Shown here piece by piece: positions 9,301 through 17,552 of a stretch of DNA of 64,000 nucleotides. Numbering within the stretch: the stretch's first letter is position 1; the number at the start of each line of letters is the position of its first letter. The translations under genes were made by a program, and so were the position numbers. The notes below the pieces were generated by a model. It ran no database searches and had not been told where the DNA came from. It worked only from the letters and a program-made list of their open reading frames with translations. Location: positions 1 through 64,000 of the forward strand of contig NW_026921466.1 of assembly GCF_032062105.1 (NCBI RefSeq), given 5' to 3'. This DNA is from Saccostrea cucullata. Taxonomy: Eukaryota.

Positions 9301-11240
9301 TTAACACGTACCCAAATATTTGGTGGTGTTTGTCTTATCAGAAGGAGTTGCAGTAGTTTTAATTGTGATGGAAGTGTGGGTAAGGGTGATGAATGTTTTA
9401 CATTGATAAATAAAAAAAATATGAAAGTATACTTATTTATACTGTATCCTTACAGTGATCAATTTCCATCTAGAGTTATCGTTCCTGTTACCCTCCACTT
9501 ATACACGAAGTTGGGAAAGATAATTCTGGATAGATTTTGAAAAATGTTATGCTATACCCTTCATGTGGGTCAATTACATGATACATAATAATAGTAAAAT
9601 GTATATAGGTTACATACTTACTTGTATTCTGAACATTGTTCTGGTCCGTTTCCTTTTTCCTAGGGTTCTAAAAATATACGAAAAGTTCGATGTAAAAGGA
9701 ACATTGAGCGCAATCTTATAAGGGAAATATTATTTCTTTGATTTAAAAAAAAAACAAGTTTATCTTTTAAAAAGATAGGTGAGCTAGCGCCGTAGCAATT
9801 TTTAAACACAAAAAGGAAGATCCGTGATCAAGTGATTTATTTTGCTGAATTCCTTAATTTTTATCGAGGCTGGAGAGTAATAAAGTTATTGTTGGTTTGT
9901 AAAGCGTATTTTATAGACACATAGGTAAAGAAACAAGGGGGGGGGGGTTGACCTATTGGAGTTTTGGCGCAACGGAACATATATGACCTTTACTGGAGAG
10001 GGGGGGGGGGCTCTCTATAATATGAAGAAGATGCCGATTGAGACATTGCATTTATGAGCTGATTAAAAGAAAAGAATTTCTTGGCAATTTAGCAAAGAAG
10101 GTACATGGGAGTTGAAAGGAATATAGAAAATAACTCAAAGTGTATGTTGTGAAAAGAGTCCAGAGAGTTTGGAACACATGTGAAATAGCTTGGTCCTGTA
10201 CGTGGGTCATCTTTGTCAAGATATGTTAGGTTAAAAGCCATACACATCAGAATTTTTAAAACACAAATAGTGGATTTATTCGTTGTTTTTAGTGTAAATT
10301 CTTGCTTCTGTTTCTGGAATTTGTAAGATTGGCTGAAATGACCAATCAGAAATTAGAATCTATCTTTGATGTATCTATGCTTAGATGTAAAAAAAAAAAA
10401 ATCCCTTGTCATTGTTTAGAACAATCAGATAATGACTCGGGTTCTGCCGTCAGCAAAAAAAACCCAGAATTTGAAATATTATAAATATCTTTAAAGTGTA
10501 AGCTACACAATAAATGAACAGTTATTTCATGCTAAAACATGATACAACGAAATTGTTATCGTAAGGTCTATCTGTAGTAGTTTTCACATTTGTCCCAATC
10601 GGCAATCCTCGGCTGACTCCGCTCCGCTTCATTCAAACGTGTTATGTGCGAGGTACGAGTCATCCGAGGAACTCCGATCGAGTGCAGTTTTCCCAGAATG
10701 CACCACCATGGCGGCCGAGCATGCGTATTAAAGGAATTTGGACTAACGTAGTTGCTAGAGCGCTAGCAATTATATGAATAGTATTATTATAATTGAGTAA
10801 CCTAATTAAATTTCTCTTACTAACCACAGTTCAAATCGTTCGAGTCTTAAATGGAGATACTGAAGAATTGGGTATGACCGGTCACCGTGACCTTGTTACA
10901 ACAGCAATTGGTAACAAATACCTCGCCGACTTCCTCCACGTTTACGGTTAATTTAAAACAAAAAAAAACATAATTTCACTTCTCTTTGTTGTTGAGAAAA
11001 TGACAAAGTCATACAAAGTGTAAGAATGAAAAAAAAAAAACTTTCCATTGTTAACCTGGAGATCGTTTCACAAAAGCATCGTAAGTTGTACGTAGTACGT
11101 AAGTACGACGTAAGTAGTGCGTAGTTAAATTTCGGCGTTTCACGAAAGCGTCTTAATTCACATTGCGTCGTACGTAACGACGTAATTTTACGTCACCTCA
11201 GAGGTGACGTAAAATCACGTCATAACGTGAGTACTTGAAA

Positions 11241-14070
11241 ATGGCAGCGTTTTTGCGGTTCTACGATGACGAGACACGAAAAAGTTTGAGGCGGCAGCGT
11301 ATTTTTAGAGACAGGTTAAACCCACTTAACTCATATTGTGATGAAGAGATGATTAAGAGGTTCCGTTTAGATAGAGGATCAATCCTAAGTATTTTAGACA
11401 ATGTCGGTGAGCAGCTGGAAAGACCTACAAAGCGCTCTCAAGGTTTGCCAGCATCCATACAATTATTCGCCGCACTTAGATTCCTAGCTTCGGGGACAGA
11501 ACAGAGAGTCATCGGCGATACTCTTGGTATCTCAAAGTCATCGGTGTGCAGGTCGGCGAATGTTTAAATTATGAAATATATGTCTTTTTAATTTGATAGA
11601 AATGAAACATGTGTACTACTATTAGACTGTATATTAAAAGAAATACACATTAGTTTATAGAATATGTCGCCATTGTGTATAGATTTTTTTTTTCAAAATA
11701 TTTATTTATTATACATATGCAGTATCATATTATTTAAACAGAAAATTCCTTTATTTTTATGACATCTAAATGTTAAGATTTGAATATAATGTTGCAAGCT
11801 TAATATAGCAGAGACACTTAAGATCATACTCTGTTTACAGATCAATTGACAAAGTAGTCCAAGTTTTGTCCACATCTTTGAACACCATTAAATTTCCATC
11901 TGAAGATGCAGACATTTTGAAAACAAAACACGGGTTTTATTCAATTGCGGGGTTTCCAAACGTGGTCGGTGCAATTGACGACACGCTTATTCCTATTACA
12001 GCGCCAAAACCTGACGAGCACCTGTACATATGTCGGAAAGGATTTCATTCCATCAACGTACAAGCCATTGTTGATTCTGACTTGAAGTATGTCCCTATAA
12101 TATTCCTAATATTTGTAACATTCACTATATACTAATAAGTGAAACATTAATTCCATTCGTTTTAATTGACAAATGTTGTTATTAAAAAGCATCTTTGTTT
12201 ATACAAAACACGACGGTAGTGTCAAGTTCAGCCGAAATTCCTTTTTCTCAGTGAAATATTTTCAATACACATGGCAAAGTGTGATGTATTGATAATTCTG
12301 AATTATAAAAGTCTAACATTTTTAGCCTTAACGTTTCATTCTTCTTGATGTTCAATGGGAATATAAATACCGGTAATTCATTGAGTTTAATAACAAAAAT
12401 TATGATTCGCGGTGAGAGAAAAAGAGAATAATTTGAAATATGCACAGGCACGTAGCATCGTTTTTGAAAGTGTGGGGGGGCCAACCTGAGAAAATTTTTT
12501 TTACTTACTTGAAAAAGTTGACAAGCAAAAAAGAGAAAAAAAAGGAAAATTGAAAGTATATAAAGCCAATGACGTATCATATACTATGGTTATAAAGTGG
12601 GGGGGGGGGCAACCATCCTATCAATGGACATTTACTATAGTAAAGGTTATGCAGCCTGATGCATGAAAGAATGTAAAGCCAATGACGTATCATCGTTCTA
12701 AGAAGGGCAGCCAGAGGGGTAACATTTTCAACATTACCTGATGAAAACTTGACGAGCAAAAAAAGAAAATAGGACACCCCCCCCCCCTTGTCAGATTGTC
12801 CACACTCGAGAATCTTATTTCATGTGTTTCGAAATTCTTTAAGTACCATTTATTATTCATACACTACTATAATATTATACCTGTATTTGACTTTCCTCAA
12901 GGAAAAAAAGTTAGGGGGGCTGACCCCCCCCCCATCCGTTGCTACGTGCCTCTATAACTTAGGGTTACTCAGTATATACGTTTAGACCATTATTATTAAT
13001 TGTACTAGGTTTCTGAGTGTAGTGAGAAAATGGCCTGGGGCAACACACGATGCCTTTATCTGGGCAAATTCTGGTATTGCACGCAAGTTCGAGAGGAGCG
13101 AAATTGATGGGTGGTTACTTGGCGACTCCGGTTATCCTTTAAGGCCTTGGCTTTTAACTCCAGTGAATAACCCTAAATATCGAGGGGAACAGAGTTACAA
13201 TGGATCCCACAGAAAAACCCGTGTTGTTGTAGAACAGGCTTTTGGAGTTCTGAAGTCCCGATTCAGGTAAGGCTAAAAGTGTCTTTTAAGGCTGAACAAA
13301 GAAAGTTTGGTCCGAATACCATCGGGATGCCATGATAATGTATACGGTAAATATTGCCTCTAGCTGAGTGTAACATTGAAAATGTTCACCTCAAGAAAAT
13401 CATTGTTAACCGAAGCATATTGTAAAACAAATACAGTGGACCTTGCGCGCATGGAATATCACCTGTCGCCAGGCAATGTTAACTGTTGCTATGCTTGAGA
13501 GTGTCGCTTTATTATTCAGCCATTAATTGTACATTTTAACACATGTTTCTCAGACTAAATGCGAATCAGACTAAACTAATTTACTTGAAAGTACTGTATA
13601 AAGCAATCAAATTATTAATTGGTTAAGAACTCGCGGTGCATGTTATTTAGAAGAAATGTTGCAAGTTTTTTTTTTTTTTTTCAAGCCTTTAAATGGGTAA
13701 ATATAATCCTTAAAAGGAAGAAAAAATAAAGTTTGCTGGTTTATAAATTGTATTCTTGTACCTTGAATCCTCTATTCTTCATTATATACATGTAGCTTAA
13801 GTTAGTCACTTAAACATTTATTCTTACATACATAGATGTCTTCATAAAACCGAAAGTGCTCTTAATTATGAACCAGAGAAATGCTGCATGATAGCGTATG
13901 TTTGCTGTCAACTGCATAATATCTGCATTGACTTGAAGCTTCCTATACTTGAAGAGGACGAGATGGATGACATTAATGATGCGGACCGGGACGGCGATCT
14001 TACCTATCAAGGACCTCTGAACGATGGCAAGACAGTGAGAGAAGCGTTAATTCGTCAGCGTTTTTTGTAA
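11241..14070 (+). CDS. Harbinger (HARBI1-like, DDE_Tnp_4) transposase, 4 exons, 349 aa
   Basis: Exons 11241-11551, 11841-12086, 13009-13266, 13836-14070 (1050 nt, all GT-AG, no internal stop). Motifs LRFLASG..Q..IGD..GISKSSVCR, FPNVVGAIDDT, RKGFHSINVQ, WPGATHDA, LLGDSGYP, TRVVVEQAFGVLKSRFR, CCQLHN. Confidence 0.9.
12446..12951. mobile_element. MITE in transposase intron 2
   Basis: 12-bp TIR aggcacgtagca / tgctacgtgcct with subterminal G/C runs; no clear TSD. Confidence 0.55.
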
Positions 14071-14187
14071 AAATAAGTAAACTTATTGCATATATGGAAA
14101 ATTTAGAAATCAATGGATTTGAAAAGAGAGAGTAACACATAGAATCTGTCAAGTGTGCAATTTTAATCAATTCCCAAAGATTCATTT

Positions 14188-17100: not shown

Positions 17101-17385
17101 TTGGGAAATTTATATAAACTAGGTGTTTGAAAACTAGTTTTAGACATGAAACAAATCGATAACTATTTACTTTGAGACTTCTATACAAAACTTCACTTGA
17201 GATACCTACAACGAGCAAATATCTTTCCAACATTTGTTTTTCCGTTGGTTGGTGTTAACATCTTTGTGGGAGGCAAACAAAATCGAACGGTTTTTCTCCA
17301 CCTCCTCCACCAAAATTTCAACTTCCCTTGCAGAAAAATTCTTTTTTCTCTCTTTTTTGACTTTATTTACAGCTTCGTCTGCCAT
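14188..17385 (-). CDS. Harbinger Myb/SANT-like DNA-binding protein (NAIF1/MSANTD-like), 5 exons, 266 aa
   Basis: Exons 17385-17210, 16252-16084, 15769-15697, 15429-15246, 14386-14188 (801 nt, GT-AG, in frame). MADEAVNKVKKERKKNFSAREVEILVEEV...KNKCWKDICSLINSVG..ERSPAEVCKKWRDI..KTGGGP, C-terminal coiled-coil KRKRTLDDVYELQCKVLEQELQKKNKLQIELL. Confidence 0.85.
14517..15094. mobile_element. Foldback/MITE-like element in intron 4 of the Myb-like gene
   Basis: Imperfect long inverted arms, e.g. cagtgccacccattg..aaa..ctgtata..tttattg.gcacaaaaa (14609-14662) versus 14998-15045. Confidence 0.55.
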
Positions 17386-17552
17386 TTTATTGAACTTCCG
17401 GTAAAATTAGGTACTTCGTAAGTTGCGCATATTCTACGACAGTTCTAAGTACCTTTCGTGAAACGGTCGTAACGTAGTGCGTAGGTACTACCTAAGTTCG
17501 TCGTAACTCACTAAGTAGTACGTAATTTACGATGCTTTTGTGAAACGATACC

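Follow-up and report, generated by a model that had tools for sequence, protein, structure and literature searches.

A full-length two-gene Harbinger element of the NuwaI type in the oyster Saccostrea cucullata, with a transposase likely crippled after insertion

The first 64,000 positions of contig NW_026921466.1 of Saccostrea cucullata (assembly GCF_032062105.1, positions 1-64,000, forward strand; this whole stretch is hereafter called the window) contain a full-length, two-gene Harbinger transposon of the NuwaI type. Our analysis indicates that its transposase has likely been crippled by mutations acquired after insertion, leaving an element that probably cannot act autonomously and might at most provide its Myb-like protein. 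We regard it, with good but not full confidence, as a recently inserted copy that is now decaying, its transposase probably dead and its Myb gene probably sound. Private mutations, one of them beside the cutting site, and flanks derived from different sites make it likely that this copy is unable to jump alone. The original prediction had presented it as a near-intact and candidate active copy; its full-length, spliced, two-component structure is upheld here, whereas the case for activity is weakened by private changes at conserved sites, by the small number of copies and by the rearranged flanks. More generally, the element illustrates that an open spliced frame and an intact catalytic triad do not prove autonomy.

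Joining the exon coordinates reproduces both open frames of the original prediction. The transposase, of 349 amino acids in four exons, is matched over the entire protein by the Pfam domain DDE_Tnp_4 (PF13359, E=4.8e-36) and keeps all three catalytic residues (D150, D200 and E261), in columns that are near-invariant among homologues. The Myb/SANT gene encodes 266 amino acids in five exons, read from 17385 to 14188, with a match to Myb_DNA-bind_5 (PF13873, E=1e-13) on exon 1 and the domain continuing into exon 2. The two genes, transposase on the forward and Myb-like gene on the reverse strand, are convergent, the predicted spacing of about 120 bp between their stops being measured at 117 bp, and all seven introns (7/7) are of the GT-AG type, two of them with weak donors (GTCGGC and GTTGTT). 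Two public proteins agree with these models: P0122, labelled 'putative nuclease HARBI1' (Saccostrea cucullata), matches the spliced transposase exactly, at 349/349 residues, and P0123, which corresponds to Myb exons 2-5, is identical at all 207 encoded residues. As both are automatic annotations, the gene models are confirmed, though not experimentally. All four Myb exon junctions are spanned by alignments of full-length homologues from other oysters, and another reading frame for Myb exon 5 was ruled out because homologues align in the modelled one. Predicted from a 58-sequence alignment, the transposase structure is a confident DDE-type fold (mean predicted local distance difference test score, pLDDT, of 86.7) that aligns with the piggyBac and Tn5 transposases over some 230 residues (Z 9.1, root-mean-square deviation 5.3-6.2); as modelled, it is a generic DDE fold. 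A prediction from the single sequence reached a pLDDT of 33 and was not usable. A sequence search for a solved Harbinger structure yielded none, with 6 weak unrelated matches, and Foldseek gave no match to the model at E<=0.001.

The terminal inverted repeats (TIRs) of the element match at 26/29 positions, and a CTG lies directly outside either end. CGTA occurs 12 times in 349 bp (both element ends together) as against 152 times in the whole 64 kb, and these CGTA-rich subterminal repeats are likely the binding sites of the Myb-like protein. Two high-copy repeats are nested in the introns, one resembling a miniature inverted-repeat transposable element (MITE); they were considered as a sign of a dead element, a reading that was ruled out because other copies have them too.

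Copies of the family were sought in the genome with five DNA queries (left end, right end, transposase exons 2 and 3, and Myb exon 4), so that the resulting numbers are lower bounds. One near-identical copy was found, a full-length sister with other flanks at positions 1026-7293 of contig C19666, whose transposase is apparently intact and open, with the motifs DGT and KTGGAL. Comparison of the window element with this sister identifies 104 differences in 6244 aligned sites (1.67%), distributed over transposase exons (1.7%), Myb exons (2.1%) and introns (1.5%) in such a way that the transposase exons are no better conserved than the introns (Fisher p=0.57). Ten of the differences alter amino acids of the transposase, and these were polarised with five older copies. 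Among the genomic copies covering the sites, G151D, S161P, S243Y, G278E and V303I occur in the window copy only, while S192R and G279S are each also present in one older copy. Since the private synonymous changes in the window transposase number 3, the ratio of nonsynonymous to synonymous changes is 5:3 for private changes or 7:3 with the two shared ones included, and both values fit neutrality (p=0.40 and 0.71). The corresponding ratio on the branch of the sister copy is 3:5 (p=0.02, computed before the extra older copies).

In the 120 listed of 161 homologues for which residue columns were counted, position 151, next to the catalytic D150, holds G in 77, C in 16 and other residues in 4, with D in 0/97; E at position 278 is found in 0/102, S at 279 in 0/105 and R at 192 in at most 2/117. 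Around the active site, the window copy thus departs from the family-typical state at D151, E278 and S279. All 12 NuwaI cores inspected in the supplement of Han et al. (PMC4482050) have G or C at position 151, and so does a protein of Saccostrea echinata, with G. Sequencing runs from other samples also have this residue: the G allele at base 11981 is present at full depth in X1, X2 and X7 (X20 has no cover there), and at 13853, 13855 and 13927 the same three runs show the bases typical of the family. We infer that G151D impairs catalysis, as it would place an extra carboxylate beside a metal ligand, in a column of small residues only. A further candidate lesion, L153 (DGTL for DGTH), was ruled out, since homologues are split between L (51) and H (44). 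The openness of the frames carries little weight in this context. When 10 random substitutions were simulated in 4000 trials, ignoring insertions and deletions, the frame stayed open in 62% (transposase) and 56% (Myb) of cases; at such divergence frames often survive, and open frames therefore say little about selection.

The Myb-like gene presents a different picture. Its counterpart in the sister copy has a stop about 21 codons before the end, whereas the window gene is whole and probably sound. The differences between window and sister are also clustered: a stretch of 250 sites holds 16 of them, a density reached in 0 of 2000 shuffles, and most lie around Myb exon 4, a pattern that suggests conversion, recombination or mosaic assembly.

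Several observations weigh against a decayed transposase. The counts of substitutions are small and compatible with purifying selection, at an omega of 0.5-0.7 that is not distinguishable from 1. No damage is seen in the catalytic triad, the TIRs, the splice sites or either reading frame, and the effect of G151D is deduced from its position. Private changes in the window Myb gene are mostly synonymous. The clustering of differences makes a mosaic or assembly chimera possible, in which case the private changes need not share one real molecule. Nested MITEs common to other copies appear to have been carried along with the element and are no mark of death. Copy counts based on DNA searches of the same genome are lower bounds only, and members of the family are transcribed and spliced in other individuals.

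Of the copies recovered, two stand at >=97% identity and the remainder, at 83-96%, are partial or broken (again a lower bound), several of them running to contig ends in an assembly that is fragmented into 23,869 contigs. An exact 23-nt TIR pattern has 17 matches in the genome and 0 in the control, and a looser pattern has 103 matches versus 11, many of them from another family. Many of the looser-pattern ends read GGTATTGTTTCACAAAAG and probably belong to a related family, non-autonomous and present in larger numbers, whose TIRs are similar. With respect to the copy number and polymorphic insertions of the original prediction, we thus count two near-identical copies, and no polymorphic site was shown. 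Apparently inactivating substitutions without polymorphic copies are hence found for the window copy and not for the family, which is not inactivated: the conserved residue persists in the sister copy and was read in three runs from other samples.

The same genome harbours a sister Harbinger family (C23738, C7106, C3461 and C20369) with nearly identical TIRs and subterminal repeats in the same orientation and with exon boundaries at the same codons as the window transposase, from which it differs in showing only about 62-78% amino-acid identity per exon to the window element. Among the four copies of this family that were checked, one is frameshifted, two lack exons within the segment retrieved, and in the last the transposase exons are open but the ends are damaged. 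A distant family (L060, 46-58% identity) also breaks at codons 185 and 271. These exon boundaries, common to sister and distant families, identify the introns as a general trait of oyster Harbingers rather than one specific to the window copy. Two further fragments were encountered. At locus L120 (C13653:17000-22500), a piece of transposase exons 1-2 on the forward strand lies directly before Myb exon 1 and a right end, 11 kb from a left end, and represents a rearranged or nested copy of the sister family. At L117 (C20667), a piece of a distantly related Harbinger-type transposase (positions 313-708, 29% identity) lies near an old copy of the window family.

Family ends abut CWG in 21/24 cases (CAG 12, CTG 9, other 3, with one end probably from another family), and a pyrimidine precedes the CWG in 22/24, both ends of some elements being counted. 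Target positions -4, -3 and -1 survive correction for 100 tests, and the signal is weak from -5 to -10 (p 0.003-0.13, n=24). The notion of a sequence-targeting transposon is therefore well supported only for a YCWG core across 24 ends. The sister copy is inserted in a satellite with a unit of about 180 bp, whose empty units read ...GCC CTG GTG..., and the filled site is bordered by CTG to the left and by CAG to the right; this is a true 3-bp target duplication with one later change (CTG/CAG). TIRs, CTG flanks and the catalytic triad had all been predicted for the window element and all are present, but the CTG pair does not hold up as the duplication of a single site at this locus. The left CTG is part of a repeat with a counterpart in C21757 that is 91% identical over 79 nt and, past the CTG, departs from the right flank of the window element after two bases. 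The right flank is the beginning of a WSC-domain exon (intact units match Pfam PF01822). Since the flanks match unrelated sequences, the two CTGs represent separate targets, and their likeness comes only from the CWG common to all targets.

The cut WSC exon belongs to the fifth unit of a tandem array of two-exon WSC-domain units at 17553-24070 on the reverse strand, with four whole units at about 19030-24070 and paralogues in C23063, C13299, C1758 and C7364. The remainder of this exon and its partner exon were sought to the left of the element and not found. Likewise, the 24 ends examined included no copy with reciprocal flanks, the 6 right-flank matches (all paralogues) contained no undamaged version of the truncated WSC unit, and the 3 matches to the left flank in the same genome, which were only paralogues, contained no empty allele. 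Joints at the window locus were sought in four runs, and among those listed (15 of 69) none skips the element. A swap of flanks between the window copy and its sister was ruled out, since the sister lies in a satellite and its target site matches on both sides. Unmatched flanks of this kind would be the outcome of any of three events: a deletion joining two sites, recombination of one copy with another, or misassembly. In the literature, nothing was found linking PIF/Harbinger with 'adjacent deletion'. Just to the right of the element, at 17687-17887, lies a high-copy palindromic repeat.

Support for splicing comes from RNA runs of other individuals, four of which were examined for junctions of the window element. 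Transposase intron 2 has an exact junction in one X6 contig, Myb intron 3 in one X23 read and one X6 contig, and Myb intron 4 in one X6 contig. For Myb intron 2, the modelled donor is joined to an acceptor located 34 nt beyond the predicted one; the contig concerned is missing 8 nt as well. An X7 contig is exact over transposase exon 2 and then diverges at both ends, lending indirect support to the acceptor of intron 1. Transposase intron 3 and Myb intron 1 had no support among the joints listed (15 of 25), and some RNA contigs retain intron sequence. Of the seven predicted introns, therefore, three are backed by exact junctions and one is spliced to another acceptor, all at low depth and in other individuals rather than from this copy. 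Oligo-dT reads cover the exons to a depth of 0-2 and miss both first exons altogether, as judged from about half of each of the runs X23 and X24. A lack of contig cover is not taken to mean that a part is missing from the transcripts. The share of the window element's words in any run is <=0.26, and the covered parts carry other alleles, so that no RNA is traceable to the window copy. In one X6 contig, a 98% copy is bordered by 140 nt of a different left flank, consistent with another insertion site.

In characterized systems, the Myb-like protein attaches to both the transposase and the element ends and makes nuclear import and excision possible; neither protein is dispensable (PMC9179366, PMC9392472, citing Sinzelle 2008). 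By analogy, both genes would be spliced here, and the Myb-like protein would bind the subterminal repeats, escort the transposase to the nucleus and place it at the element ends. The DDE transposase would then cut at the TIRs and insert at a YCWG site with a 3-bp duplication. The mismatch between the flanks may in turn reflect a deletion between two CWG sites, either made by the transposase or resulting from recombination of two copies, that would have truncated the WSC-repeat gene.

It could be argued that the window copy is autonomous or nearly so and that its substitutions are tolerated. The open frames, the intact triad, TIRs and GT-AG sites, the confident DDE-type fold (pLDDT 86.7) and the low divergence from the sister copy all speak for this; yet Asp at 151 in 0/97 homologues and Glu at 278 in 0/102, D151/E278 alleles that recur in no second copy, open frames that are expected by chance at such divergence and the lack of reads traceable to the window copy make autonomy very unlikely. 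A related possibility is complementation in trans, with the sister copy giving a near-ancestral transposase and the window copy a full-length Myb-like protein, so that the family still moves. The open sister transposase with its DGT and KTGGAL motifs and its 3:5 branch ratio (p=0.02), the early stop in the sister Myb gene set against the whole window gene, the existence of spliced family transcripts and the X6 contig with its 98% copy and different left flank are all in line with such an arrangement. We nonetheless consider it quite unlikely, given that there are no identical copies and no empty-site joint among those listed (15 of 69), that exons show an RNA depth of 0-2, with no cover of either first exon in X23/X24, and that the p value for the sister branch is one test among several on 8 changes. 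In its boldest form, this alternative would have a natural, unreconstructed family moving in rock oysters by means of two half-damaged copies, and here excising part of a WSC-repeat gene via two CWG sites, a scenario to which we assign a distinctly low probability. If true, the natural sister transposase and the window Myb protein would constitute a ready-made molluscan two-component transposon. Should the two proteins work together, an animal Harbinger would be at hand that is active without having been reconstructed, and it might serve as a tool in molluscs.

An assembly chimera, in which the ends of two or more copies have been joined, could also account for the flanks and the uneven divergence. 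The assembly is fragmented and several copies stop at contig ends, and both the two-site flanks and the clustered differences would follow naturally. Against this, none of the 24 ends examined belongs to a reciprocal-flank copy, none of 6 matches is an undamaged allele of the truncated WSC unit, and the sister, of comparable length, was assembled with a target site that matches. A chimera is thus unlikely, and it would be compatible with a transposase crippled after insertion in everything except the history of the flanks. Domestication as a HARBI1/NAIF1-like pair of host genes, suggested by the public label 'putative nuclease HARBI1' and by the co-domesticated adjacent pairs of insects (PMC9710019), is by comparison extremely improbable, for the TIRs are present, multiple copies reside at unrelated sites and the window transposase displays no sign of constraint. 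A transposase crippled after insertion hence remains the favoured explanation. The natural D151/G151 pair could serve to test the need for the residue after the first catalytic Asp, and the truncated WSC-repeat gene stands as a possible case of gene damage made by a transposon.

The element combines the features of PIF/Harbinger transposons: a DDE_Tnp_4 transposase with a D-D-E triad, an internal Myb/SANT gene, TIRs and, at the sister locus, a 3-bp duplication. The NuwaI group, as defined by its CWG targets, comprises 23 families, 11 of them potentially active, including Harbinger3_DR and the Crassostrea gigas families NuwaI-1 to -4_CGig (Harbinger-2, -4, -5 and -8_CGi), with TIRs of 12-61 bp that usually begin with GGG (PMC4482050). 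The window family resembles this group in its CWG duplication, DDE_Tnp_4 transposase of about 340 amino acids, Myb_DNA-bind_5 partner, TIR length and oyster host, and differs from it in TIRs that begin with GAG/GGT rather than the usual GGG. Compared by eye, the printed catalytic core of NuwaI-4_CGig is the most similar to that of the window element, but none of the four printed C. gigas cores appears to be of the same family, a judgement made by eye on these cores and not from a tree. Identity with Harbinger-4_CGi, proposed from length alone, was ruled out in the same manner on its printed core. The zebrafish element Harbinger3_DR (NuwaI-2_DRer) has been reconstructed and is reported to be active in human cells (Sinzelle et al. 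2008, via PMC3016246, PMC9179366). It is likewise two-component, with proteins of 343/221 amino acids versus 349/266 here, and shares the CWG core. The right flank of the window element reads CTGGTCTT, like the Harbinger3_DR target consensus AAACACCWGGTCTTT (PMC3016246), but the latter element has a palindromic preference of about 15 bp, whereas here only Y-CWG is well supported (24 ends) and the element is known from sequence alone.

Oyster proteins labelled 'putative nuclease HARBI1' or 'NAIF1-like' include P0122, P0001, P0121, P0002 and P0125, of which P0001 is the sister copy transposase (97%), P0002 a C. gigas protein (68%) and P0125 a C. angulata protein with 80% identity to the Myb protein. 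These labels refer to vertebrate domesticated genes (PMC9392472), from which the oyster proteins of the P0122 type differ in being transposon copies with TIRs. A survey of bivalves lists 58 curated full-length PIF-Harbinger consensus sequences (PMC10294476), a library that may hold the window family, and polymorphic PIF-Harbinger insertions are described in another oyster (preprint 10.64898/2026.02.10.705023). A literature search by title, with Repbase outside its scope, found nothing on this Saccostrea family. As NuwaI Harbingers are already known from oysters, the window element would be an ordinary new family within a known group, to which it adds a fully mapped, seven-intron oyster member. 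The coordinates of its parts are collected in Table 1.

Table 1. Coordinates of the Harbinger element in the window, its genes and its immediate surroundings.
Feature	Position	Strand	Remarks
Left CTG	11056..11058	+	Part of repeat also in C21757, continuing unlike right flank
Full-length Harbinger (NuwaI-type) element	11059..17552	+	6494 bp; TIRs; end-to-end alignment with sister copy C19666, flanks different
Left TIR	11059..11087	+	29 bp, begins GAG; same end in other copies
Left subterminal region	11088..11240	+	Many short CGTA/TACG repeats and 57-bp palindrome (11172-11228)
Transposase exon 1	11241..11551	+	Coordinate splicing; public protein P0122
Transposase exon 2	11841..12086	+	Catalytic D150, private G151D (base 11981) and S161P
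Nested high-copy MITE-like repeat	12445..12951	.	Transposase intron 2; right part common to C19666 and C13017, both without left ~220 bp
Transposase exon 3	13009..13266	+	D200, E261, S192R, private S243Y
Transposase exon 4	13836..14070	+	Private G278E and V303I, also G279S; stop 14068-14070
Myb-like exon 5	14188..14386	-	Coiled-coil-like end and stop
Nested high-copy inverted-repeat element	14514..15097	.	Myb intron 4; common to C19666 and C8330
Myb-like exon 4	15246..15429	-	Within cluster of differences from sister copy, possible conversion tract
Myb-like exon 3	15697..15769	-	
Myb-like exon 2	16084..16252	-	Second half of Myb/SANT domain
Myb-like exon 1	17210..17385	-	First half of Myb/SANT domain
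Right TIR	17524..17552	-	29 bp, begins GGT
Right flank	17553..17578	-	First 26 nt of WSC-domain exon, includes right CTG, cut off by element

Elsewhere in the window, a stop-to-stop frame of 233 amino acids at 7596-8297 on the reverse strand has no Pfam match. At 52357-56933 on the forward strand, two identical 100-bp direct repeats enclose a gag-pol region in four separate frames, which we take, from its motifs, to be a Gypsy-like long terminal repeat retrotransposon. The open frame of 626 amino acids at 61504-63384 on the reverse strand presumably resembles a long interspersed nuclear element, judging by its reverse-transcriptase-like motifs.

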